DNA of 64,000 nucleotides from an uncultured Candidatus Saccharibacteria bacterium (GCA_964582295.1 CAZOQP010000002.1:8563-72562), one strand, 5' to 3'; counted from the stretch's first letter, positions 39,666 to 50,505 are shown. Numbers and translations: made by a program. Notes: a model not told the origin generated them from the letters alone.

Positions 39666-42600
39666 GTGATGGTTATTTGTAAACCACTTAAGAAAACACA
39701 CAAAAAGGAGCTTCACGTGCTTACTCGTTTGTATCGTCAGATGAAGGATGGCCTGGAGTACTGTTTCTATATTGAGACAGAGGAAGGGTTGTCTGCAGAA
39801 ATGTTGGAAAAGATCACCTGGCTTATCCAGGAGACGTTCGAACCATTGTCAGCTAGACCGCTATCATTTTTTGCTTCAGAAGAAAAAGTGGTGGAAATAG
39901 GTCCTCGGATTTCGATCGAAACGCCTCTCTCTTCTAACGCAGTTTCGATCTGCCGTGCAATGGGAATCCCGCAGATAACTCGTATTGAGCGTTCTCGCCG
40001 CCATGCTGTTCGTAAAAATGGGGTTGAGCCCGTTATGGACCGCATGACAGAAGAAATATACACGTGCGGGCTCGAGAACTTTGATACCGGTATTACGCCG
40101 GAAGGTGTTAGGACGATCAATGTCATGAGGCGTGGAAAAACCGCTCTTGAAGAGATCAACACTGCCCTTGGGCTCGGGATGGATGCTCACGACATTGAGT
40201 ATTACTATCGTCTCTTTTCAGAAGTTCTGAAAAGAGATCCGACCGATGTTGAACTGTTCCAACTCGGCAATGCTAACAGCGAGCACAGCCGGCACTGGTA
40301 TTTCAAGGGACAAATTGTCATTGATGGAGTAGAGATGGATCGGACTCTCATGGATATAGTCCAAAGTCCGCTCCAGAGTATGGAAAATCTAGGATGTAGT
40401 CTGGTTGCCTTCCGAGACAATGCGGGGGTCATTATTGGCCCCACACCCGTGGTGACTGTTCTTGTACCGGAAATACCCGGCAAATGTTCGGAGCTTGTAC
40501 TCCACAGGAGGATCGTGGATATCACCTGTACTGCAGAGACGCATAACCATCCGACGTTCGTTGCACCTTTTCCAGGCGCCCAAACGGGTTCCGGTGGAAG
40601 GATACGCGACAACACTGCGGTTGGTCGCGGCGGCATTACAGGGATAGGTGCTGCCGGATATTTTGTAGGCAATCTTTTCATTCCTGGATATGAAATTCCG
40701 GGAGAAGTTGTCGGCAAAGACAAGCCATCTAGATACGCTTCGCCCCTCTCTATTCTCATTGAGGGTTCAAACGGCGTATCAAGCTACGGCAACCAGTTCG
40801 GAGAACCGCTTACTTTGGGGTTCACCAGAACTTTCGGGCAGATGGTGGATGGTGAGTGGCGCGAACCACGCAAACCCATCCTCTATAGTGGCGGTGTCGG
40901 TCATTTGTTTGGCGAACACGTCACGAAGGAGGCACCTGAAGTCGGAATGCTTATCGTACGTATTGGTGGCCCCGCATATCCTATTGGGGTAGGCGGAGGC
41001 AGCGCATCAAGCATGATGCAAGGTCAAAATACCGAAGCGCTTGATTTCAATTCCGTTCAGCGTGGAAATGCTGAGATGGAAAATCGAGCTAATCGGGTTA
41101 TTCGGGCCTGTGCGGAAATGGGAAATGAAAATCCTATTTCAAGCATTCACGATCAAGGTGCGGGTGGTCCAAGCAATGTTTTGACGGAACTCATGGAGCC
41201 GCTTGGCGGTACCATAGATATCTGGAAAATCGTTCTTGGCGACAAAACGATGTCGGTACTGCAGATATGGAGTGCTGAATTCCAGGAAGGATACGGACTG
41301 CTGGTGAGGCCGGAAAATATCGGACTCTTTCAGTCAGTCTGTAAGAGAGAACGTGTCAATTGCGAAGTTCTGGGAGTCATAGATGGCGGCGGAAAAGTTG
41401 TCGTTGAAGACTCTCAAAATGGAACAAAGCCCGTCGATCTCAATCTGGAGCAAATTCTCACGAATATGCCCCGGAAAACATTCAAGACAAACTGGCGTCT
41501 GAGAGATCTCAAACCTCTGGCTCTGCCGGAAATGGGTGTGGGGGAAGCGATAGAAAAAGTTTTCAAACTCCCCTCGGTAGGTTCAAAAGGATTCCTTGTC
41601 CATAAAGTGGACAGGAGCGTGACTGGTCTTGTCGCACAGCAGCAATGCTGCGGTATTGCTCAGATCCCGATATCGAATGTGAGCATCAATGCGCAGAGTC
41701 ATTTCGATATGACTGGAGCGGCAAGTGCACTCGGCGAGCAGCCAATCAAGATGCTCATTGATCCGAAAGCTGGAGCCAGAATGGCGGTAGGAGAAATGCT
41801 TACCAATATGGCTTCCGCTAGGATAACGGATATCGTTGATATCCGTTGCCGTGCGAACTGGATGTGGCCCGCGAAGCTTCCTCACGAAGGCGCCCTCCTC
41901 TATGATGCCGCAGTTGCGATGTCCGATCTTATGATCGAACTTGGTATTGCGGTTGACGGAGGAAAGGACAGTCTTTCAATGGCCGCGGATGTATCGGGAG
42001 AAATTGTAAAAGCTCCTGGCAGTCTTGTGGTCAAGGGATACGCGCCTGTTGCTGATATCATAAAAAAGCTTACACCCGACATTAAAAAAGCGGGGCAGAG
42101 CTTGCTTGTACTGTTAGATCTCGGGCAGGGTAAAAATCGCCTTGGCGGTTCAGCCCTCGCCCAAGCATTTGATCAGCTTGGCAACGAAACACCCGATGTT
42201 GATACTCCAAGGCTCCTCAAGAATGCATTTCTTGCGGTGCAAAGGATGATAGACGAAGGATTAGTACTTGCTTTGCATGACAGAAGCGACGGGGGTCTCA
42301 TAACTGCCGTTGCCGAGATGTGTATGGCGAGCCGGTGCGGGTTTTCTCTCCGGGTATCAACTCGTGAAAATGTGCTAACGGAGTTGTTTTCCGAGGAACT
42401 GGGTTTTGTCATGGAGGTGGAGAAAGGATGTTATTCGCAACTTGAAAATGTTGCGGATGCTTTCGATCTCCAAATGACAATAATCGGCCAGACTGTGAGT
42501 AATTCGCTTTGCACTATCAGCACAGAGAAAGAATCGTTGTTCCAGAGTGTTATAACGGAACTGCGATATTGGTGGGAATCCACAAGTGCAAAAATTGAAG

Positions 42601-43547
42601 AACTCCAGATGGATCCCGGATGTGCGAAGGCAGAGTATTGCCGGCATCAAAGTCAGCTTTATCGGGATGGTAATACTGCTCCATCGTACAAGCTCACCTT
42701 TGAGCCGATATGGACTTCCCCGGAAATTCTGAATGCTTCGGATAACCCACGCGTGGCAATTGTGCGCGAGGAAGGAACGAACGGAGATAGGGAAATGTCG
42801 TCTGCTTTCAAGGCGGCAGGACTTCGTCCTTACGACATCAATATGGAAGATCTCCTGTCGGGCGACGCGAATCTGGATACATTCCAGGGCATCGTTTTTC
42901 CCGGAGGGTTCTCCTATATGGATGTATGTGACAGCGCCAAAGGCTGGGCCGGAGCCATCCGCTTCAATGACAAGCTCCGTCGAATGTTCGACCGTTTCTG
43001 TGCAAGAGAGGATACTTTCTCGCTCGGTGTGTGCAATGGTGCACAGCTCATGGCGTTACTCGGATGGGTTCCGCAGAAGGGGATTGAGGAGGAAAAACAA
43101 CCGAGATTCATTCATAATGTTTCCGGCAGGTTTGAATCCCGGTGGGCACAGGTAGAAATCCTGCCGAGCCCAGCCATCCTTTTTTCTGGGATGGAAGGGT
43201 CACGGCTCGGTGTGTGGGTGGCACATGGTGAAGGTCAACTAGTCTATCCTGATCAGTTGATCGGGGAAGAGGTGATGAAGAATAACCTTGCACCACTCGC
43301 CTACATAGACCCGCATGGTAATCCGACAGGGGAGTATCCGTACAACCCGAACGGTTCACCAGGAGGGATAACGGCACTCTGTTCGCCGGACGGCCGTCAT
43401 CTTGCGATGATGCCCCATCCGGAAAGATGTTTTCTCAAGTGGCAGTGGCCGTATATGCCACAAGAGTGGAATGATCGCCTGGAGACTTCTCCATGGCTCA
43501 AGATGTTTCAGAATGCCCGAAGTTGGGCACTGGCGCATCGGGGCTAA
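39666..43547 (+). CDS. purL: phosphoribosylformylglycinamidine synthase, single-chain large form (PurL with C-terminal glutaminase domain)
   Basis: 1293 aa. Duplicated PurM-like AIRS domains and a C-terminal class I glutamine amidotransferase region (..GVCNGAQLM.., ..HPER). Confidence 0.9.
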   Translation: MMVICKPLKKTHKKELHVLTRLYRQMKDGLEYCFYIETEEGLSAEMLEKITWLIQETFEPLSARPLSFFASEEKVVEIGPRISIETPLSSNAVSICRAMGIPQITRIERSRRHAVRKNGVEPVMDRMTEEIYTCGLENFDTGITPEGVRTINVMRRGKTALEEINTALGLGMDAHDIEYYYRLFSEVLKRDPTDVELFQLGNANSEHSRHWYFKGQIVIDGVEMDRTLMDIVQSPLQSMENLGCSLVAFRDNAGVIIGPTPVVTVLVPEIPGKCSELVLHRRIVDITCTAETHNHPTFVAPFPGAQTGSGGRIRDNTAVGRGGITGIGAAGYFVGNLFIPGYEIPGEVVGKDKPSRYASPLSILIEGSNGVSSYGNQFGEPLTLGFTRTFGQMVDGEWREPRKPILYSGGVGHLFGEHVTKEAPEVGMLIVRIGGPAYPIGVGGGSASSMMQGQNTEALDFNSVQRGNAEMENRANRVIRACAEMGNENPISSIHDQGAGGPSNVLTELMEPLGGTIDIWKIVLGDKTMSVLQIWSAEFQEGYGLLVRPENIGLFQSVCKRERVNCEVLGVIDGGGKVVVEDSQNGTKPVDLNLEQILTNMPRKTFKTNWRLRDLKPLALPEMGVGEAIEKVFKLPSVGSKGFLVHKVDRSVTGLVAQQQCCGIAQIPISNVSINAQSHFDMTGAASALGEQPIKMLIDPKAGARMAVGEMLTNMASARITDIVDIRCRANWMWPAKLPHEGALLYDAAVAMSDLMIELGIAVDGGKDSLSMAADVSGEIVKAPGSLVVKGYAPVADIIKKLTPDIKKAGQSLLVLLDLGQGKNRLGGSALAQAFDQLGNETPDVDTPRLLKNAFLAVQRMIDEGLVLALHDRSDGGLITAVAEMCMASRCGFSLRVSTRENVLTELFSEELGFVMEVEKGCYSQLENVADAFDLQMTIIGQTVSNSLCTISTEKESLFQSVITELRYWWESTSAKIEELQMDPGCAKAEYCRHQSQLYRDGNTAPSYKLTFEPIWTSPEILNASDNPRVAIVREEGTNGDREMSSAFKAAGLRPYDINMEDLLSGDANLDTFQGIVFPGGFSYMDVCDSAKGWAGAIRFNDKLRRMFDRFCAREDTFSLGVCNGAQLMALLGWVPQKGIEEEKQPRFIHNVSGRFESRWAQVEILPSPAILFSGMEGSRLGVWVAHGEGQLVYPDQLIGEEVMKNNLAPLAYIDPHGNPTGEYPYNPNGSPGGITALCSPDGRHLAMMPHPERCFLKWQWPYMPQEWNDRLETSPWLKMFQNARSWALAHRG

Positions 43548-43563
43548 AGGCGATGCTTTACTA

Positions 43564-43596
43564 AAAGCTCCCGTTCTAGTGAACGGGAGCTTTTTC
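43564..43596 (+). terminator. intrinsic terminator of purL
   Basis: aaagctcccgttc-tagtg-aacgggagcttt then ttcg. Confidence 0.6.
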
Positions 43597-43599
43597 GTG

Positions 43600-43635
43600 C
43601 AACAAAACAGCTCGTCGCGAGTAGCGACGAGCTGT
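43600..43635 (-). terminator. intrinsic terminator of purM (convergent)
   Basis: cagctcgtcgc-gagta-gcgacgagctg, followed on the minus strand by ttttgttg. Confidence 0.5.
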
Positions 43636-43650
43636 GAACAATACGAACGT

Positions 43651-44784
43651 TTAACGCACGGCGAGTGTTTCGGCGGAGAATTCCAGATTTTCCGGTCGAA
43701 TGACAACTTTCTTCACTTTACTCTTCTCAATGTAGCCAGCATGTGTAACGGCATACTCAAATCCGGCAGTCTCACGGGCAACCCTCAATACTTTTTTGAC
43801 GTCTCGTGCGGGAACATAAAGTGCAAAACCTGCTCCCATATTGAAGTTCCCGTACATCTCCCTGTTACTGATCCGCCCGCTCTTTTGAATGAATCGAAAA
43901 ATATGCAGATCTGGTGGCATCTTTTCGATTACATAAGAGAAACTCCCGGGAGCTCGCATGAGCTTTCGCCATCCGTGACCAGTTATATTCACGGCATAGT
44001 GTATGTTCACCCCTGCTGTCAGACAATTTTCAACAAGAGGAACATAGATGCGAGTGGGTTTCAGAAGCACTTCCCCGTAGGTACCCCCGTCGCTGAATGG
44101 GGTCAGATATTTCTTGGGAAGTTTTTCCGCGATCTCTCGTGCGAGAGTCAGGCCATTTGCATGAATGCCCGAACTTTCTACAAGAAGGATCGCATCACCG
44201 TCCCGAATATTTGCAGGGTTGATTAGCCGCTTTTTATCAGTGATGATCCCAACAGTTGCGCCTGCAAGGTCTGCTGTTCCGGGAACGATGATGCCCTTGA
44301 GTGTGGGTGTTTCTCCACCACCCCACACTGCGCCAGCTATATCACATGCGTTTCGAGTGCCATTGATCAGACTCTGCCCCCGGCCTTTATCATCGAACCA
44401 TTCTGATTCTCCGACGGCCAGATACTGGCCGTATATGAGTGGAGAGGCGCCAACAGTGATGAGATCGTTGAAGGCCATAGCGGCATTACATTGCGCCACA
44501 TTGTAGTAAAGAGATCTACCATGGCTTCCTTTCATCTGCATTGCCAGTTGGTAGGCATCGGCAACCAAGTTTTTGGTACCCAATCCTTCAGTGACAAAGG
44601 CAAGGTAGCCGAGCGGTGTCTCCACAACAAAGGCACTTTCTCCTCTGCTCCAAGGAAGGACAGAGCATCCAAACCGGTGTGCATGGTGATTGGTCTCAGT
44701 GGCGGCTTGTTGCGCGTCTGTTTTGAAAGGGTCCATAGAGTTGTAGTCAACTCCAGCTCCTGCATACGTCATCCTTTTTGTCAT
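43651..44784 (-). CDS. purM: phosphoribosylformylglycinamidine cyclo-ligase (AIR synthetase) PurM-like
   Basis: AIRS/PurM-family signatures (..AGAGVDY.., GGGETPTLKG, NITGHGW, EMYGNFNMGAGF). Other AIRS-family members (HypE, SelD, ThiL) are not fully excluded. Confidence 0.7.
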   Translation of the reverse strand: MTKRMTYAGAGVDYNSMDPFKTDAQQAATETNHHAHRFGCSVLPWSRGESAFVVETPLGYLAFVTEGLGTKNLVADAYQLAMQMKGSHGRSLYYNVAQCNAAMAFNDLITVGASPLIYGQYLAVGESEWFDDKGRGQSLINGTRNACDIAGAVWGGGETPTLKGIIVPGTADLAGATVGIITDKKRLINPANIRDGDAILLVESSGIHANGLTLAREIAEKLPKKYLTPFSDGGTYGEVLLKPTRIYVPLVENCLTAGVNIHYAVNITGHGWRKLMRAPGSFSYVIEKMPPDLHIFRFIQKSGRISNREMYGNFNMGAGFALYVPARDVKKVLRVARETAGFEYAVTHAGYIEKSKVKKVVIRPENLEFSAETLAVR

Positions 44785-44876
44785 TTCCGTTGCCTCTGCT
44801 TAGTATTGTGAGAAGTGCTGTTCCAGCGCCGATACTAAAGAAAAATCCCTAAAAAGCAAATTATTAAAAACAACAA

Positions 44877-44906
44877 CGCCTCGTGACCATAAGTGGTCAC
44901 GAGGCG
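44877..44906 (-). terminator. perfect 12-bp-stem hairpin overlapping the stop of the 45289-44897 gene, upstream of purM
   Basis: cgcctcgtgacc-ataagt-ggtcacgaggcg, with ttgttgttttt on the minus strand after it. Confidence 0.4.
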
Positions 44907-45289
44907 TACAAATATGGCTTGAGCGAGTACAGACCTCTTTGAAATCGTGCGGTTGAGAGGAATCGTTCATAGTACCTCTCCCATTCCGGATCGAACTCCC
45001 GGACACAGACGATGAGACCCATGGATTTTCTGATTCTCCGGAGCTCCAGATAATACTGAAGGTCAAGGAGGGTTCTTTTGGATATTCCGAAGATCCCGAA
45101 GTCGTCACATACCTCTATGAGCTTGTGTCGAACCTGCTCTGTTCTTTCTTTTCCCATACACCCTTTTTCGTAGAACTCATAGGGGAGTGCCCGAAACGGA
45201 TTGATGGGGGCATTTCCCTGCGAGGCCACGAACTTCATGATGTCGTCGGTTCGATTAGCCAGGCGCGAAGGAGTGGATGTATAAACCAC
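44897..45289 (-). CDS. hypothetical protein (130 aa)
   Basis: Intact ORF. No recognisable motif. Confidence 0.35.
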   Translation of the reverse strand: MVYTSTPSRLANRTDDIMKFVASQGNAPINPFRALPYEFYEKGCMGKERTEQVRHKLIEVCDDFGIFGISKRTLLDLQYYLELRRIRKSMGLIVCVREFDPEWERYYERFLSTARFQRGLYSLKPYLYAS

Positions 45290-45372
45290 TCTAGGCTCGT
45301 GTACTACTGATTGAAGCGTTCAGGCTCCGGTTAAAGTCCGCGGCTCATCTTATAGAAATTATGAAAAAGTGT

Positions 45373-45699
45373 CTATTTTCGTACCACGAATGAATCCACC
45401 TTTACTGCTCCGTTATCATCTGTTGAGTAGGTAAAATCTGCCACATAAGCTACATGGCCATCTTCATATGCGACGGTACCCGTGCCTGCGTTCGCTTCCA
45501 CTTCCGTTACATAGAATTTGCCCCCGAGCACTTCTTTTTCGGGAGATAATTCTGAAATATTTTGCTTCACATACTCTTCAATGCTTACTCCCTGCAAGGC
45601 CGACTTTGCTTCTCCAGTAAAATTATTCGAAAGAGAAAGGGCATACCCGACAATTCCCGCTATCAGAAGAATCACAGCAATTAAAATAACTTTTTTCAT
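45373..45699 (-). CDS. secreted or membrane-anchored hypothetical protein (108 aa)
   Basis: N-terminal signal/anchor MKKVILIAVILLIAGIVGYA. Confidence 0.4.
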   Translation of the reverse strand: MKKVILIAVILLIAGIVGYALSLSNNFTGEAKSALQGVSIEEYVKQNISELSPEKEVLGGKFYVTEVEANAGTGTVAYEDGHVAYVADFTYSTDDNGAVKVDSFVVRK

Positions 45700-45839
45700 A
45701 TATTCATTATAAACAACGGCGAAAGAAGGTTTGTCTTACTTATACATTAATAGAAAGGGAGTAAATTGAGAAAGACAACAGAAAACCCGCTGCCGATACA
45801 GCCGACAGAAAGTTTCTGTTAGTGGCTCGGGAGCGGGCG

Positions 45840-46163
45840 TTACTTTGATTCGAGAATTTTTCGAAGCGCTTTCCAGGTACGATCAATCCGGTTGACCAGT
45901 CTGTAGATTTGCTGACCTTTGTCAGAAAGATTGAATTGTCGGTTGTCCCAGAGAGTGCTAGTCCGCGGCTGCGTTTCGACGATCAAACTCTTCTCTTTGA
46001 GCTTGTTAATCAAATTGAACCGCGTCTTACCACCGCCAGCCTTGAAGATGGACGACGGCCCGATGAGATCTCCAATTTGAGAGGTATCGAGAGTGCCATG
46101 CTTTCCAAGCACTTCAATCACTCGAAGCTCACCTGTGGAGAGCAATTTTCCTTCAGATTCCAT
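45840..46163 (-). CDS. putative winged-helix DNA-binding protein
   Basis: 107 aa; the ...ELRVIEVLGKHGTLDTSQIGDLIG... segment resembles an HTH recognition region. Family not assignable. Confidence 0.35.
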   Translation of the reverse strand: MESEGKLLSTGELRVIEVLGKHGTLDTSQIGDLIGPSSIFKAGGGKTRFNLINKLKEKSLIVETQPRTSTLWDNRQFNLSDKGQQIYRLVNRIDRTWKALRKILESK

Positions 46164-46225
46164 TTAAAATCCTCCTTGAAGTTCTTAGGGTTTAATATCA
46201 TGTTATATAGACTGTGTCAATGGTG

Positions 46226-46297
46226 TGACCCTACCGGGAATCGAACCCGGGTTTGAAGCTTGAGAAGCTTCCGTCCTAGCCGCTAGACGATAGGGCC
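46226..46297 (-). tRNA. tRNA-Glu (anticodon CTC)
   Basis: Hand-folded cloverleaf. Acceptor GGCCCTA/TAGGGTC with one G-U pair, 3-bp D-stem typical of tRNA-Glu, anticodon loop TTCTCAA, T-arm CCGGG-TTCGATT-CCCGG. Confidence 0.8.
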
Positions 46298-46324
46298 GTG
46301 CTTTGGCAGAATAACGAATAAAGA

Positions 46325-46597
46325 ATGACGAATCAAGAAACATTTTTCACTCGCTCGGTTATAAAAGTCGTAAAATCGATTCCTAAAGGCAAAACACTTT
46401 CATATGGAGAGGTCGCTCGTCGCGCGGGTAATCCAGGTGCGGCGAGAGCCGTGGGAAGCATTATGAAAAATAATCACGATAAAAAAGTTCCGTGTCATCG
46501 TGTGATACATTCAGACGGCAGGGTGGGGGATTACAACGGTGGCGGAGAAAAACAAAAGCGCGCACTTCTCGTGAAAGAAGGCGCGCTTACCGGTTGA
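46325..46597 (+). CDS. methylated-DNA--protein-cysteine methyltransferase, stand-alone C-terminal (catalytic, DNA-binding) domain
   Basis: PCHRV active-site motif (..KKVPCHRVIHSDGRVGDY..) in a 90-aa protein. Confidence 0.7.
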   Translation: MTNQETFFTRSVIKVVKSIPKGKTLSYGEVARRAGNPGAARAVGSIMKNNHDKKVPCHRVIHSDGRVGDYNGGGEKQKRALLVKEGALTG

Positions 46598-46607
46598 TCC
46601 CGGCGGG

Positions 46608-46964
46608 TTAGCAGTTTATGTACGGGCTGCCATCGTAGCGGCGGCCGACAAAGAGGTCGTTCTGCCGCTCGCCATAAAAGGAGCATTGCTGCTGAGTTCG
46701 TCCATATCGCGTAGTGGCGACAACCAGTCCCTGCCAGTATGCCGGGCAAGAGCTCGTAGAATACGAGCAGTCCTCGCTCGGCAGGTTGAGAGGATCCATC
46801 TCAGCTTTGGCGTAGGGCGGCATCAGGACCCGCTTGGGTCCGATGTCGATCGTGACACTGTCGGCATCACTGTACGCGATGATGAAGAACGAACGATCGG
46901 TGAGCATGGTGTCGCCGCACCCGATAAGGGAAATTGCGATGAGCACTTTGATGAACTTTTTCAA
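46608..46964 (-). CDS. putative lipoprotein
   Basis: Signal peptide ending in the lipobox-like LIGC. 7 Cys in the mature part. Confidence 0.45.
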   Translation of the reverse strand: MKKFIKVLIAISLIGCGDTMLTDRSFFIIAYSDADSVTIDIGPKRVLMPPYAKAEMDPLNLPSEDCSYSTSSCPAYWQGLVVATTRYGRTQQQCSFYGERQNDLFVGRRYDGSPYINC

Positions 46965-47041
46965 TGGCGTCTCCGGTTGAGGTTGGCTGTGTCTATATAC
47001 AGTATAGCATATACTAGTATTTTGTCAAGGGGATAAAAAGC

Positions 47042-47323
47042 TTGATTTTGAGGCCTATAAAAGCGACGATAAGGAAGCAGGATTTAACCGATAATAATAA
47101 AAAATTCATGGCTCTAGATATGCCGCAGGATATGCCTGAACAGACACCTCAACAGGCAGAAGTTACGATGACAGCCGAGGAACTGGAATTACTAAGACGA
47201 GACATGCAGCCCGGGGCTGAGCCTTACAGGGTAGAAGTTAGGGAAGATAATCAATATCGTGTGTTCCGTACAAAGGACGAGTACGACGCGTATCTCGAAG
47301 GCAAACGCGAAAATTCTAGATAA
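47042..47323 (+). CDS. hypothetical small acidic protein upstream of the large ATPase
   Basis: 93 aa. Ends 37 nt before the ATPase start codon; likely co-transcribed. Confidence 0.35.
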   Translation: MILRPIKATIRKQDLTDNNKKFMALDMPQDMPEQTPQQAEVTMTAEELELLRRDMQPGAEPYRVEVREDNQYRVFRTKDEYDAYLEGKRENSR

Positions 47324-47359
47324 ATTAATATCAAAAGCTTTAACTGCTTTTGATATACT

Positions 47360-50107
47360 GTGAGAATGGAAACAGCTCCTACAAAAGAGCGGATGCTCGT
47401 GGCTGAAGAAGAGCTTGCGTATTTGCGCGGGCAATTTGAAAAGCAAAAACAAGAGAATATTTCTTCCGCAAAAATGGGAGACGAAAAAACTCTCTCTCAT
47501 GCAGTAGTGCGTTCCTATGCGGAAGCTCACCCGAGAGAACTTTGGGGTGCTGGGCACACTGCGGCTGAAACAGTAATTGCGGGGCTAGCTTTAAAGATCG
47601 CGCCTGAACCTCATGATGTTCGCATGGAAGAGCTTTACAGGGTTATTCAGACGAAAGGAATATACACAGCTCTTAAGGTGGTAGAGAAAATGAATGACCC
47701 TCATTTGGAGGACGATTTCCACCGCTTCGTGGCTGAGCTTGTGCGTGGAGCACATGGCGTAAAGGGACTAAAGGAAAAAACAGAGCTTTCCCGTTCTGTA
47801 TCGCGAGTACTTTTTGAGATATCCCTTTCACGGAATAAAGATGAAGGAGATAAGGGGGGCTCTGGGCAGGGGCTTCGCGAGCTTGTCTCAAAAATGGAGA
47901 GCATTTATGCCATTCTTCAGGGTCATGAGAAAGACAGGGAAACTATAGTTTTGGAACTTGCAAATTCTGCGGGAAATTCGGAACTGGTTTTTTATGCGGC
48001 GGTTCCCGGAACATGGGCAAACCGTTTTGAAAATGAGATACGTACTGTATATCCGGAAGCGCGGGTGAACGAACGACCGGATGATTACAATGTTTTTGCT
48101 CAAGGCGGCCACATCGCGCTTTCATCTGCAAAGCTCTCTCGTTCTGCAGCTTTGCCGCTTAAAACATTTGAGACTTTTGAGCACGACCCCATGAATCTCC
48201 TAATTGGTGCTTTCGGAAAACTTCATCATGAAAATGAAGGGGCATTAGTTCAGATAGTGGTGGGCGCAGCTTCATCTTCTTTTGAAAAAACAGTGCGAGG
48301 TAAAAAAAGTGCCATAGAAAAAGGTGCTGACCCGAAGGAAGTGCTTGCCGAAAGGGGAGTATTAAGTGAGATATTCGGCATGTTCGGAGATATGTTCAAA
48401 AATTCGGGTGGAAAAAAGAAAGAGGAGAAAGAAAGTTCACTTCAAAAACATGCAGCAGTTCTACAAAAACTTGAGAGTAAATTGGCAAGGCCTATAAGCA
48501 CTGTGTGGATGCGCGTCGCGGCATCCGCCGCGACGCGCGAGCGCGCGGAAGCCATTGGACGCGACATTGAATCCTCTTTCAGACAATTCAGCGAACCCAC
48601 AGGCAATGAAATAATTTTCAAAAAAGTGCGCCCAAGGGAAATGCGCCGCGCCGTGAGGGCCATTTCCTTTCGGTTGCCGTCTTTTGGCGACGCTTTGTAT
48701 TTGAACACTGCTGAACTTGCAACCATTTTCCATTTTGAAAGCGCCGGCCTTACAGCATCCCCAACCCTCAAAACAGCGCAGTCTGTTTCCCATGCCGCAC
48801 CCCTTGATGTTCCAAAAGAGGGAATACTTATGGGGGTGAACGGAACGGCCCCCGATCAGAAAGAAATTTTCCTTGCAGACACAGATCGCCTGCGCCATTT
48901 GTATGTCATAGGCCAGACAGGAACCGGAAAATCAACGCTTCTTAAAAACATAGTTATTCAGGATGTGGAGCGCGGTCATGGCGTGTGCTTCATAGACCCG
49001 CATGGTTCGGATATTGAAGAAATACTTTCCCGTATTCCGCCTGAACGCCAAAAAGATGTCATTTATTTTGACCCAGCCAATCTTGAATATCCGATAGCCC
49101 TCAACATGCTTGAATACGATGCACGTTTTCCTGAACAAAAAACTTTCGTAGTGAACGAGCTCTTCGCAATATTCCAGAAATTGTACGGAGCTGTCCCTGA
49201 ATCAATGGGGCCCATGTTTGAGCAGTATTTCAGGAATGCTACTCTGCTTACTATTGAAGATCCTGAATCCGGCTCAACACTTCTTCATGTGTCACGAGTG
49301 CTTGCAGACAAGGCGTATCGCGAACATAAACTATCCAGATGCAAAAACCCAGTAGTGGTTTCTTTCTGGAAGGAAATAGCTGCAAAAGCGGGAGGGGAGG
49401 CCTCACTTGCGAATATCGTTCCCTATATCACTTCTAAATTTGATGTCTTCCTTGCGAACGACTATATGCGCCCTATCATCTCTCAAGAAAAGTCGTCTCT
49501 TCGTTTCCGCGAGATAATAGATGAAAAGAAAATTCTTTTAGTGAACCTTTCCAAGGGCCGCCTGGGCGAGATAAATAGCAATCTTCTTGGTCTTATTATC
49601 GTTGGCAAACTTCTGATGGCCGCTCTTTCACGTGTTGACGTTTCAGCAGATACGCGAAATCCTTTCCATTTGGTGATAGATGAATTCCAGAATGTTACGA
49701 CAGATTCCCTAGCGACTATTTTTTCCGAGGCCAGGAAATACGCGCTGTCTCTTACAGTCGCACATCAATACATCGCCCAACTGACGGAAAATATCAGCAA
49801 AGCGGTTTTTGGCAACGTGGGAACACTGGCGATCTTCCGAGTAGGCACGGATGATGCAGAGTATTTGGAAAAACAATTATCTCCGGCTTTTGGGGCGGCA
49901 GACCTGGCGAATCTTCCGAACGGCATGGCGGCATTGAAAATATTAGCGAACGGCATACCCCTTCCGCCTTTTGATATTCATACCTTCGGATTTGCGAAAG
50001 GGAATAGCGACGGGCAGGCGCTCAAAGAAGCATCTGCACATAAATATGGCACTCCACGAGAGGAGGTTGATAAGATCATAAACTCGTCTTTCACCCCTGC
50101 TTCTTAA
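47360..50107 (+). CDS. large soluble P-loop NTPase of the FtsK/HerA/TraG-VirD4-VirB4 superfamily with an unrecognised ~500-aa N-terminal region
   Basis: Walker A YVIGQTGTGKSTLL at about residue 520, CFIDPHG, Walker B HLVIDEFQNV, then ...SLTVAHQYIAQL... No TM segments. N-terminal half has no motif I can assign. Confidence 0.6.
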   Translation: MRMETAPTKERMLVAEEELAYLRGQFEKQKQENISSAKMGDEKTLSHAVVRSYAEAHPRELWGAGHTAAETVIAGLALKIAPEPHDVRMEELYRVIQTKGIYTALKVVEKMNDPHLEDDFHRFVAELVRGAHGVKGLKEKTELSRSVSRVLFEISLSRNKDEGDKGGSGQGLRELVSKMESIYAILQGHEKDRETIVLELANSAGNSELVFYAAVPGTWANRFENEIRTVYPEARVNERPDDYNVFAQGGHIALSSAKLSRSAALPLKTFETFEHDPMNLLIGAFGKLHHENEGALVQIVVGAASSSFEKTVRGKKSAIEKGADPKEVLAERGVLSEIFGMFGDMFKNSGGKKKEEKESSLQKHAAVLQKLESKLARPISTVWMRVAASAATRERAEAIGRDIESSFRQFSEPTGNEIIFKKVRPREMRRAVRAISFRLPSFGDALYLNTAELATIFHFESAGLTASPTLKTAQSVSHAAPLDVPKEGILMGVNGTAPDQKEIFLADTDRLRHLYVIGQTGTGKSTLLKNIVIQDVERGHGVCFIDPHGSDIEEILSRIPPERQKDVIYFDPANLEYPIALNMLEYDARFPEQKTFVVNELFAIFQKLYGAVPESMGPMFEQYFRNATLLTIEDPESGSTLLHVSRVLADKAYREHKLSRCKNPVVVSFWKEIAAKAGGEASLANIVPYITSKFDVFLANDYMRPIISQEKSSLRFREIIDEKKILLVNLSKGRLGEINSNLLGLIIVGKLLMAALSRVDVSADTRNPFHLVIDEFQNVTTDSLATIFSEARKYALSLTVAHQYIAQLTENISKAVFGNVGTLAIFRVGTDDAEYLEKQLSPAFGAADLANLPNGMAALKILANGIPLPPFDIHTFGFAKGNSDGQALKEASAHKYGTPREEVDKIINSSFTPAS

Positions 50108-50112
50108 AGAAT

Positions 50113-50150
50113 TGTGTCATTCCAACATTCTCAAGAATGTTGGAATGACA
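50113..50150. repeat. perfect 18-bp-arm palindrome immediately after the ATPase stop codon
   Basis: gtgtcattccaacattct-ca-agaatgttggaatgacac. No T-run on the plus strand. Confidence 0.5.
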
Positions 50151-50160
50151 CTTGTATACA

Positions 50161-50204
50161 ATAAAAACAGGCAAAACAAAACGGAGGGGTTGTTTTCCCT
50201 CCGT
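50161..50204 (-). terminator. intrinsic terminator for the 50505-50215 gene
   Basis: acggaggg-gttgtttt-ccctccgt, followed on the minus strand by tttgttttgcctgttttt. Confidence 0.5.
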
Positions 50205-50214
50205 CTCTGTTCCT

Positions 50215-50505
50215 TCATCTGTTGCAGAGGGCGATTGCCTCCTGCACGTACTTCTCGCGGCGAGCCGGAACAACTTCCTTCTCCGCCCTTCGCATATTCT
50301 CATCAAACATCTGAAGCATTGCACCTGTGACAATCTCGTCGTGAGTGTCGCTTCCATCAGGGAAACCCATGAGCTCCTCTACCGCGCGCGGTAGAGCAGT
50401 GATTTCCTCATGCGAGCTTCTTGCGCTGGCGAGTTTTTCCCGTGCCAGCTTCTTCACCCTTTCTTTCGTAACCTCGTCGAGGGCAGTCCACGCCGTCGTG
50501 GTCAT
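50215..50505 (-). CDS. hypothetical protein (96 aa)
   Basis: Intact ORF with a terminator downstream. No motif. Confidence 0.35.
   Translation of the reverse strand: MTTTAWTALDEVTKERVKKLAREKLASARSSHEEITALPRAVEELMGFPDGSDTHDEIVTGAMLQMFDENMRRAEKEVVPARREKYVQEAIALCNR

Follow-up and report, generated by a model that had tools for sequence, protein, structure and literature searches.

A soluble coupling-protein-type ATPase with a DUF8128 domain among the housekeeping genes of Patescibacteria

The stretch of DNA analysed here (64 kb; hereafter the window) carries a large ATPase gene a short distance from a tRNA-Glu, with three small ORFs between them, and the locus raises the question of whether this set was acquired as a unit or whether the ATPase belongs to the chromosome proper and, if so, what it drives. 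The first-pass annotation viewed it as horizontally transferred DNA lodged beside the tRNA, an accessory, conjugative or anti-phage cluster. This appears highly improbable in the light of the data presented below, being already contradicted by synteny and distribution, and the ATPase is instead a vertically inherited chromosomal member of a family found throughout the ultra-small Patescibacteria (Paceibacteria-type genomes).

The individual elements of the locus are largely as first described. The tRNA-Glu (anticodon CTC; 46225–46297, minus strand, by ARAGORN) does lie next to the cluster, and the 90-aa methyltransferase domain that follows (46325–46597, plus strand) is borne out by its ORF, by profile matches (PF01035, E-value 1.3e-28, 99 bits; TIGR00589, 82 bits against a cut-off of 46) and by a PCHRV motif containing the PCHR active-site cysteine. 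It is a stand-alone MGMT C-domain protein, with the N-terminal Ogt domain absent; syntenic counterparts in loci L001 and L002 are 68–72% identical, and a DNA_binding_1 gene occupies the MGMT position in L096 and L097. On the opposite strand lies a small lipoprotein of 118 aa (46608–46964, minus strand), the N-terminus of which (MKKFIKVLIAISLIGC) comprises a signal peptide and an LIGC lipobox, preceded by a near-consensus promoter (TTGACA-16-TATACT with TG, 47028–47001). The lipoprotein and its strand were called correctly, whilst the label 'Cys-rich' is mildly overstated for a protein with 5 Cys. Its ORF has a weak codon-usage score (0.03) and a GC content of 0.555, and both L001 and L002 have a lipoprotein-like gene at the equivalent place, that of L001 being 22% identical over 128 aa; it is a fast-evolving protein that has kept its position. 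The third small ORF (93 aa; 47042–47323, plus strand) is likewise present, although 'acidic' again goes a little far (pI 5.0; 19 D/E versus 16 K/R). Its only match among 5.8 billion proteins is itself (P0286), and it is absent from the corresponding gap of about 120 bp in L001, L002 and L096. A codon-usage score of 0.169 puts it in the range of coding sequences (mean 0.193, against -0.158 for the null 95th percentile); it is probably a coding, lineage-specific orphan.

A tRNA-linked genomic island was considered for this set and rejected. Neither an integrase nor repeats flanking the cluster could be found in the window, the GC content of the ATPase gene (0.467) is not anomalous against the window mean (0.471), and both gene order and tRNA are conserved in relatives. 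Adjacency to the tRNA had been read as a mark of acquisition, but of the 12 related loci with a YqeY/RmuC context, 10 carry tRNA-Glu(CTC) at a distance of 0.5–4.5 kb upstream from the ATPase, and the tRNA is a conserved syntenic neighbour rather than an integration site. Full-length relatives of the ATPase (>120 found; 44–69% identical) are encoded by at least 570 species-representative genomes of Patescibacteria, in every case amongst housekeeping genes. The order MGMT, lipoprotein, ATPase, YqeY, RmuC, L21, RecR, DnaB is shared by the window and its closest relatives (L001, L002 and L096 being syntenic), and other contexts, such as spc-operon/Adk/Map upstream with Ndk downstream, or MurA-MreB, are also of housekeeping character. 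Across the lineage this is a conserved gene in housekeeping surroundings, and by the refuting condition that accompanied it the accessory reading fails. Nor do the four genes behave as a functional unit, since the MGMT-lipoprotein-ATPase linkage is confined to the closest relatives examined (63–69% identity) and no homologue of the 93-aa ORF was found anywhere; the MGMT protein, the lipoprotein, the orphan and the tRNA are neighbours of the ATPase, not partners.

Some observations do lean towards acquisition or defence. Besides the adjoining tRNA, PADLOC returns a weak mad8 match for the ATPase (48.6 bits) together with HerA matches limited to the P-loop, a Bradyrhizobium plasmid encodes a relative of the ATPase half flanked by CHAT and TPR genes, and ATPase-only relatives are present on viral contigs. 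Against this, the DUF8128-containing form described below is absent from viral contigs, PADLOC gives no matches for the neighbouring genes, and none of the partner genes of anti-phage ATPase systems (HerA-Sir2/DUF4297, MADS and other PADLOC systems) was found with it. Comparison of homologue neighbourhoods similarly reveals none of the conserved nuclease, Sir2 or pilus partners that had been envisaged, nor any other conserved effector gene adjoining the ATPase.

The ATPase gene itself was first annotated as encoding 915 aa, and the ORF is real (47360–50107, plus strand, when read from a GTG at 47360). The start is, however, most likely the ATG at 47366, because homologues and the database copy (P0001) begin there, giving a protein of 913 aa (47366–50107). 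The gene is single-copy within the window. Immediately 5′ of the ATG is an element (47328–47359, plus strand) in which a hairpin with an 11-bp stem (47328–47356) overlaps an extended -10-like sequence, TGATATACT (47351–47359), ending 6 nt ahead of the start codon. A -10-like hexamer is found 6–14 nt 5′ of the called ATG in seven loci (L096, L001, L002, L007, L005, L006 and L003), the distance being 6–7 nt in four of them. This arrangement suggests that the gene has its own putative promoter and a leaderless mRNA.

At the other end, the perfect palindrome reported after the stop codon is present (50114–50151), with 18-nt arms at 50114–50131 and 50134–50151, between convergent genes. The arm occurs once in the window, and a metagenome scan returns just 13 single-strand matches; it is not a repeated element. 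Relatives harbour unrelated GC-rich hairpins at this position, and the 131-nt stretch 50095–50225, which includes a second hairpin, folds at -48.6 kcal/mol (z -7.8 versus shuffled sequence). The palindrome is most likely a terminator hairpin, and the ATPase gene appears to be bounded by signals of its own, a candidate promoter and a candidate terminator. The second hairpin, followed by a T-run (50178–50207, minus strand), resembles an intrinsic terminator serving the downstream minus-strand gene, a convergent 96-aa ORF of no known family (50215–50505; codon-usage score 0.183), in the slot of which relatives carry small non-homologous ORFs.

With regard to the protein, both nucleotide-binding motifs proposed for the C-terminal half were found in the translation. 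Walker A (GQTGTGKS, extending to GQTGTGKST; residues 516–523; 48911–48934, plus strand) and Walker B (LVIDEFQ; residues 769–775; 49670–49690, plus strand) contain core residues that are invariant across 71 homologues (G516, Q517, T518, G519, G521 and K522; D772, E773, F774, Q775 and N776), and mean identity across homologues in this half is 63%. Its class had been given broadly as FtsK/HerA/TraG, and it is the last of these that holds. Pfam profiles of the coupling proteins score above their cut-offs (TraG-D_C, 32.2 bits versus 22; T4SS-DNA_transf, 22.0 versus 20.1; TrwB_AAD_bind, 24.8 versus 20.5), identifying a type IV coupling protein (T4CP) nucleotide-binding domain, whilst the FtsK_SpoIIIE match, like those to HerA, is limited to the P-loop (E-value 0.008). 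The predicted RecA-like ATPase domain (residues 487–913; 48824–50104, plus strand) has a TrwB-like fold with an all-alpha insertion (residues ~591–705) between the Walker motifs. By these profile matches, the C-terminal half is assigned to the VirD4/TraG/TrwB clade.

The remaining ~480 residues had been described as resembling nothing recognisable. They do fall outside the classical families, but precomputed annotation places PF26449 (DUF8128) on the identical database protein P0001 and on nearly all homologues. Two regions can be distinguished. The DUF8128 core (residues ~140–460; 47783–48745, plus strand) is an alpha/beta domain with a VirB4-type N-terminal domain fold, found in 3,032 clusters at 50% identity, and the overall protein is thus a T4CP-clade ATPase joined to an N-terminal VirB4-like domain. 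Ahead of it is a helical extension (residues 1–135; 47366–47770, plus strand) with modelled helices at residues 13–127 and a nearly invariant HLEDDFHRF motif (residues 113–121), in which H113, D116, D117, F118, H119 and R120 are invariant in the homologue alignment. This extension is restricted to the long form of the family. Short-form proteins of about 800 aa, such as P0220 with its hydrophobic N-terminus, have a transmembrane helix in its place and align to the family profile only from about position 135. A 19-residue hydropathy scan of the whole window protein finds no transmembrane segment, with the peak value (1.76, residues 736–754) falling within the ATPase core, so that the earlier description of the protein as soluble is upheld; it lacks the N-terminal membrane anchor of T4CPs and carries the conserved extension instead.

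The VirB4-like fold invites the view of a VirB4-like paralogue that docks on VirB3/VirB8-like membrane proteins and, instead of receiving substrates, serves as an ATPase for assembly or energy supply. Its two-domain layout and size are those of VirB4, and Foldseek returns a full-length, co-linear alignment with TrwK, in a structure model of which the inter-domain arrangement is uncertain (pTM 0.55). At the sequence level, however, VirB4 profiles essentially fail (TIGR00929, 17 bits versus a cut-off of 643; no match to CagE_TrbE_VirB, TraC_F_IV or AAA_10), and hhalign against a VirB4 N-domain yields a probability of just 0.25%. In an Embleya plasmid cluster encoding PrgI, VirB4, a T4CP of the same type and a relaxase, our family HMM gives the T4CP 239 bits and the genuine VirB4 adjacent to it 4 bits. 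Canonical VirB4 is moreover reported in the literature at about one copy per Patescibacteria genome, near dnaA/dnaN and hence in another context. We regard a VirB4-like role as improbable.

Plasmids and phages supply further relatives. Proteins from Peribacillus and Bacillus plasmids (870–898 aa) are encoded directly upstream of relaxases, and the ATPase halves are 25–37% identical to such plasmid proteins. For the N-domain profile, hhalign gives a probability of 70% over 329 columns against the N-terminus of an 850-aa protein from a B. albus phage-plasmid, and 45% over 270 columns against that of the 870-aa Peribacillus protein, a related Bacillaceae plasmid product; both alignments speak for homologous N-termini. 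Amongst phages, phrog_5156 spans residues 189–905 of the ATPase (E-value 4e-82), the family HMM matches a 906-aa protein of Goe16 across profile positions 150–911, and gp156 of Bacillus phage G and SPO1-like phage proteins also match. The Firmicutes plasmid proteins (Peribacillus, 870 aa; B. altitudinis, 898 aa), the actinobacterial one (Embleya, 812 aa) and the phrog_5156 proteins resemble the window ATPase in size and in their combination of N-terminal core and ATPase, whilst differing in residing on mobile elements, often beside relaxase and TcpC/TcpE- or PrgI-like genes, where the window gene is chromosomal. Some possess transmembrane helices, which the window protein does not, and their records give no characterised function. 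Because this architecture is found in Bacillus phages and, on Firmicutes plasmids, beside relaxases, the Patescibacteria gene may have been domesticated from a monoderm mobile-element ATPase.

Like TrwB, VirB4 and HerA, the ATPase would form a hexameric ring driven by ATP, and the VirB4-like domain and helical extension could recruit this ring peripherally to the membrane. There its motor would provide coupling or energy for the type IV secretion apparatus that Patescibacteria encode elsewhere on the chromosome without a relaxase, in parallel with the T4CPs of Gram-positive conjugation systems that have no transmembrane domain. A soluble hexameric motor working with such an apparatus is most likely the function, and we consider this account as a whole, domesticated origin included, to be probable, albeit by no means secure. 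It is homology that connects the ATPase with secretion, because neither a T4SS gene nor a relaxase was found in the 64-kb window, or within three genes of the ATPase in 84 related loci; similarly, no VirB3, VirB6 or VirB8 homologue, integrase or defence partner was found with it.

The same lack of linkage speaks for an exapted, T4SS-independent motor. This would be a hexameric translocase with a housekeeping role and with nucleic acid or protein as its substrate, for instance in host DNA/RNA import, DNA segregation or substrate handling for another envelope machine. Patescibacteria T4CP homologues are found in more genomes (2,918) than VirB4 (2,417), and the one homologue examined genetically, the t4cp homologue of Southlakia epibionticum, is not essential for epibiotic growth, whilst T4SS genes are (PMC12102498); both facts favour independence from the T4SS, as does the want of a recognisable coupling protein in the Southlakia T4SS cluster. 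Soluble homologues also exist in lytic Bacillus phages, which have no T4SS. Genes of nucleotide and DNA metabolism recur as neighbours (Adk, PurC, PurL/PurM, MGMT or AlkD-like, RmuC, RecR/DnaB), Ndk being the gene directly downstream of the ATPase in 22 loci and lying no more than three genes away in about 30. These associations are, however, phylogenetically non-independent, and chance co-occurrence is likely in gene-poor genomes. Furthermore, the ATPase showed no sign of a DNA-binding or FtsK-gamma-like module, and its closest relatives of interpretable context adjoin relaxases and VirB4. Exaptation strikes us as the less likely alternative, albeit one deserving more credence than a VirB4-like role, and the secretion-coupled motor is retained as the preferred reading.

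Set against known systems, the ATPase is likened to TrwB of R388, VirD4, TraD, DotL and Cag-beta by its RecA-like domain with helical insertion and its above-cut-off T4CP Pfam scores, and to TraJ of pIP501 in having no transmembrane domain, T4CPs of this kind being a recognised subclass (PMC7434980). It differs from T4CPs in falling far below the NCBIfam TraD/VirD4 equivalog cut-offs (best 55.7 versus 366 bits), in its chromosomal location and vertical inheritance, and in the lack of an accompanying relaxase or T4SS gene and of a small membrane partner next to it; the ~480-residue N-terminal region, combining helical extension and VirB4-like domain, is not shared with TrwB or VirD4. In comparison with VirB4 and TrwK of R388 it is co-linear over its whole length, yet it is a gene separate from canonical Patescibacteria VirB4, with no VirB4 signal in its sequence and no linkage to VirB3, VirB6 or VirB8 genes. 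The DUF8128/VirB4-like N-domain, and the split between soluble and membrane-anchored forms, are not described in the survey of Quinonero-Coronel et al. 2025 (PMC12102498). That study nevertheless counted 5,713 VirD4-type T4CP homologues in 2,918 Patescibacteria genomes, found just 148 of these close to virB4 and raised the prospect of their exaptation, and the window gene fits by description amongst these abundant homologues, present in nearly every Patescibacteria genome, rarely near virB4 and possibly exapted.

The layout of the locus proved much as the first-pass annotation had described it. A minus-strand tRNA-Glu(CTC) gene, identified by ARAGORN at 46225-46297, is followed by four ORFs, the first of which (46325-46597, plus strand) encodes a stand-alone 90-aa MGMT C-domain methyltransferase mini-protein, with matches to PF01035 (E 1e-28) and TIGR00589 (over cut-off) and a PCHRV motif. 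Next, on the minus strand, is a 118-aa lipoprotein ORF (46608-46964) with a signal peptide, a LIGC lipobox and five cysteines, preceded by a near-consensus promoter. The third ORF (47042-47323, plus strand) encodes 93 aa with codon usage resembling that of coding sequence, and its earlier description as acidic applies only mildly (pI 5.0). The fourth (47360-50107, plus strand) is the ATPase, a soluble protein without a transmembrane helix, in which the ATPase motifs GQTGTGKST and VIDEFQ are intact and strongly conserved. Whilst the ORF does span 915 aa, the most likely start, judged from sequence comparison, is the ATG at 47366, which agrees with both the database copy (P0001) and the homologue consensus and yields a protein of 913 aa. 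Downstream of the stop codon lies the reported palindrome, with perfect 18-nt arms (50114-50151).

Signals at either end of the ATPase gene suggest an independent transcription unit. A -10-like element with a TGn extension, TGATATACT, is found upstream of the start at 47351-47359, and a -10-like hexamer (TATACT, TATAAT or TATGAT) occurs 6-14 nt before the called ATG in the window (region 47328-47366) and in seven relatives (L096, L001, L002, L007, L005, L006 and L003), the distance being only 6-7 nt in four of these. No Shine-Dalgarno sequence precedes the ATPase start in the window or in the same seven relatives, and the arrangement suggests that the gene has its own promoter and a leaderless mRNA. 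At the 3′ end, a 131-nt stretch around the palindrome, which includes a second, T-tailed hairpin at 50178-50207, is predicted to adopt a very stable fold (z -7.8). Relatives harbour unrelated GC-rich hairpins directly 3′ of the stop codon, between convergent genes, and it is this terminator position that the palindrome and the T-tailed hairpin appear to occupy in the window. The palindrome was also considered as a mobile or repeated element, and this was rejected, with one copy present in the window and only single-strand matches returned by a metagenome scan.

The surroundings of the ATPase gene are those of ordinary chromosomal backbone. The closest relatives examined (63-69 % identity) keep the gene order of the window: MGMT, a minus-strand lipoprotein-like gene, the ATPase, a small minus-strand ORF, YqeY, RmuC, L21, a small ORF, RecR, DnaB and CysRS. 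Across 84 loci this YqeY/RmuC context is the second most common (10-12 loci), with tRNA-Glu(CTC) upstream in 10 of 12. Most often, Ndk lies on the downstream side (30 loci), with Map, Adk and SecY on the upstream side (24-26 loci), an arrangement in which the ATPase gene comes after the spc ribosomal operon; a MurA-MreB context is found in a further four loci. Within the window, every ORF with a Pfam match is of housekeeping type (PriA, Def, Fmt, MreB, HolB, RRF, RseP, aminoacyl-tRNA synthetases, PBPs, a MurE-like ligase, PurL, PurM and DnaB amongst them), the GC content of the ATPase gene (0.467) is close to that of the window (0.471), and neither an integrase nor flanking repeats were found there. 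The first-pass annotation had proposed a tRNA-adjacent acquired island, and had itself named housekeeping synteny and wide distribution as the pattern that would speak against this; both are what the comparison returned. The tRNA is indeed adjacent, yet an acquired island or defence reading is now highly improbable, the synteny and distribution results running against the former, and membership of a defence system being rejected on a PADLOC match limited to weak mad8.

No partner gene is linked to the ATPase. The nucleases or Sir2 proteins suggested earlier as partners to look for do not recur amongst the 84 loci, and neither does any T4SS component or relaxase; when approximately 1,090 ORFs neighbouring the gene at 88 loci were clustered, only housekeeping families emerged. 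MGMT is kept in the closest relatives alone, whilst at other YqeY/RmuC loci (L010 5203-5919, and also L049, L055 and L040) an AlkD-like 'DNA alkylation repair enzyme' gene (PF08713) fills the slot, such that two non-homologous alkylation-repair genes share one position. The lipoprotein keeps its place, yet its identity to the counterpart in L001, a locus with the gene order of the window, is no more than 22 %, and with conservation that is purely positional it was dismissed as a partner. Its codon-usage score is marginal (0.03), with the opposite strand scoring similarly. The two minus-strand genes flanking the ATPase (46608-46964 and 50215-50505) have a GC content of 0.555-0.557 against the window mean of 0.471. 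Searched against 5.8 billion proteins, the 93-aa ORF matched nothing besides its own record, and relatives have a gap of around 120 bp without it; the most plausible reading is an orphan specific to this lineage, and it was likewise set aside, as was a 96-aa downstream ORF for which the corresponding slot of relatives showed no detectable homologue.

In approximately 14 of the 84 loci a large same-strand ORF (700-1,600 aa) directly adjoins the ATPase. Eight of these were scanned (L011 3315-5903, L031 3324-5936, L017 2683-5889, L006 7770-9914, and those of L038, L066, L048 and L075); they lack signal peptides, match no Pfam family and have charged N-termini. Those of L011 and L031 are homologous end to end and have their C-terminal ~100 aa in common with L017, the remainder being mutually unrelated. 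With none having a counterpart in the window, they too were rejected as partners. A separate difference concerns the region upstream, where window positions 39666-46297 differ from L001 4303-5234 (MurE, tRNA-Glu, two small genes, MGMT). Between the MurE-like ligase and tRNA-Glu the window has in addition a fused PurL/FGAM synthase (1293 aa), PurM and three small ORFs of no known function (130, 108 and 107 aa), which places the variable segment upstream, not downstream, of the tRNA. Purine-synthesis genes are noteworthy here, the lineage being generally characterised as auxotrophic for nucleotides.

The two halves of the ATPase display distinct affinities. The C-terminal half (residues ~487-913) matches the T4CP families TraG-D_C, T4SS-DNA_transf and TrwB_AAD_bind, together with DUF87, all slightly over their Pfam gathering cut-offs, whilst NCBIfam gives TraD and VirD4-like matches that are all below threshold and essentially no VirB4 signal. 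An internal control is provided by an Embleya plasmid bearing a row of genes for PrgI, a VirB4-type ATPase, a T4CP-type ATPase, a relaxase and an NlpC/P60 hydrolase, in which the window-family HMM scores 239 bits on the T4CP versus 4 bits on VirB4. The AlphaFold model (71 homologues as input; mean pLDDT 82.9) has a fold within the T4CP/VirB4/HerA group; the modelled fold alone would place the protein in this assemblage, and sequence profiles point more specifically to the T4CPs. The N-terminal half, said earlier to match nothing, does lie outside the classical families, but corresponds to Pfam PF26449 (DUF8128) according to precomputed annotations. It is the more divergent part, with a mean identity amongst homologues of 35 %, against 63 % for the C-terminal half. 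A separate model of residues 1-485 (pLDDT 77, pTM 0.72) comprises a helical extension (residues 13-127) and an alpha/beta core (~147-455). Its fold is VirB4-like, with Foldseek aligning the full-length model to TrwK chains across ~900 columns; at the sequence level similarity to the VirB4 N-domain is absent (hhalign probability 0.25 %). Sequence-profile searches of the PDB matched TrwB and DotL at P-loop level only for the full-length protein, and gave no credible match for the N-domain. From these profiles and models, the predicted architecture is a hybrid, with a VirB4-fold N-domain in front and a T4CP-clade motor behind. A VirB4-like assembly role for the ATPase is improbable.

Much of bacterial diversity falls within the host-dependent Patescibacteria, and across this group the ATPase is distributed broadly and in a core-like manner. 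A word-indexed search returned more than 120 full-length homologues (44-69 % identity), with every match that bore an organism name deriving from Patescibacteria, Paceibacterota, Parcubacteria or Minisyncoccia. The N-domain profile recovered 3,032 clusters at 50 % identity among 1.84 billion representatives, 441 of them at E ≤ 1e-30, and when one genome per GTDB species was scanned, at least 570 contained a relative; named records among the matches listed were all Patescibacteria-type genomes, and the 80 loci kept each have a near-whole-protein match. Amongst the N-domain matches is a short form (~800 aa) without the first ~135 residues, in place of which one example, P0220, has an N-terminal transmembrane helix. 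Short forms were located at L088 8001-10415 (P0220) and L089 8001-10523 (P0233), the former within a same-strand run of unannotated membrane or secreted proteins (240, 165, 251, 188 and 532 aa) positioned downstream of an FtsQ/POTRA gene. These neighbours were considered as hidden T4SS components and discarded, none having a Pfam family at either locus. Two full-length copies (L019 and L076) occur on different contigs of one species-representative assembly, CALRBL01 (Candidatus Nomurabacteria MsH-01oct19-81), and could be a paralogue pair or reflect a mixed bin.

The family is already catalogued as a DUF, and its members are known to the literature collectively as 'T4CP homologues'; a literature search for DUF8128 retrieved no papers. 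Quinonero-Coronel et al. (2025; PMC12102498) recorded 5,713 VirD4-type T4CP homologues, distributed over 2,918 of 3,035 Patescibacteria genomes and in just 148 cases near virB4, with VirB4 itself in 2,417 genomes and typically close to dnaA/dnaN. Exaptation was raised there as possible, the t4cp homologue of Southlakia epibionticum being non-essential and the T4SS genes essential. In Southlakia, the only species examined by genetics, the essential T4SS cluster has neither a coupling protein nor a relaxase that can be recognised (Wang et al. 2023; PMC10633639). A 2026 bioRxiv paper on RNA-feeding Patescibacteria mentions VirB4 alone, and nothing on the DUF8128 family. Three features seem undescribed: the N-domain with its VirB4 fold, the division of the family into soluble and membrane-anchored forms, and the architecture held in common with Firmicutes plasmid and phage proteins.

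As a working model, the ATPase would form a hexameric ring, be recruited peripherally to the membrane via its N-domain and conserved helical extension (HLEDDFHRF motif), and serve a chromosomal, relaxase-less T4SS encoded elsewhere as its coupling or energising motor. The identity and architecture can be advanced with considerable confidence and the T4SS-coupling role only tentatively, with identity, architecture and coupling motor taken together as one statement being somewhat probable. The main alternative, an exapted translocase operating independently of any T4SS, is rather unlikely, yet draws on the absence of linkage to T4SS genes, a distribution wider than that of VirB4 and the existence of phage homologues. 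A bolder proposal is that the ATPase no longer belongs to a secretion system and is instead a lineage-wide housekeeping motor through which nucleotide-auxotrophic epibionts would take in RNA or DNA of their host, or other macromolecules. The wider spread, the absence of T4SS linkage and the purine and repair neighbours fit such uptake, the ATPase gene lying between Adk/Map and Ndk in a third of loci and adjoining PurC, PurL/PurM or DNA-repair genes elsewhere; even so, it is a doubtful reading. Were it true, the T4CP/VirB4 superfamily would gain a physiological role new to it, and the way in which Patescibacteria feed on their hosts would become easier to approach. The abundant 'orphan' T4CP homologues of Patescibacteria lack an assigned role, and the Paceibacteria-type example combines a soluble T4CP motor with a VirB4-like N-domain. 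A hybrid ATPase with core-gene-like conservation also bears on the divergence of VirB4 and T4CP ATPases.

Beyond the Patescibacteria, the same architecture is found in Firmicutes plasmids and Bacillus phages. The PHROGs family phrog_5156, of unknown function, spans ATPase residues 189-905 (E 4e-82), and homologues are present in 37 Bacillus phage records. In phage G, gp156 spans residues 175-868, and the SPO1-like phage Goe16 encodes a soluble 906-aa protein (L117 5167-7887) matching family profile positions 150-911. Lytic SPO1-like phages, phage G and a B. albus phage-plasmid (L093 7392-9944) carry soluble proteins of ~850-906 aa with a DUF8128 core plus ATPase, all annotated as hypothetical, whilst viral metagenome contigs harbour only ATPase-only relatives of ~430-456 aa. 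The DUF8128 profile is co-linear with the N-termini of the 850-aa B. albus phage-plasmid protein and of a Peribacillus protein (hhalign probabilities of 70 % and 45 % across 329 and 270 columns). Amongst plasmids, tblastn finds the ATPase half at 25-37 % identity in 723 records. A plasmid relative of the ATPase half, a 708-aa protein of Bradyrhizobium plasmid p131_1 (L090 6056-8182; 34 % identity), is flanked by CHAT-domain and TPR proteins; the plasmid is non-mobilisable, and the arrangement resembles a conflict system more than a conjugation module. T4CPs lacking a transmembrane segment are themselves a recognised subclass, exemplified by the pIP501 protein TraJ, whose partner in the membrane is TraI (PMC7434980). 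In Peribacillus and B. altitudinis plasmids, proteins of 870-898 aa are encoded directly upstream of replication-relaxation (relaxase) genes, which are followed by 'conjugal transfer protein' genes and, in Peribacillus, also by a TcpE-family membrane protein; this placement is the usual position of a T4CP.
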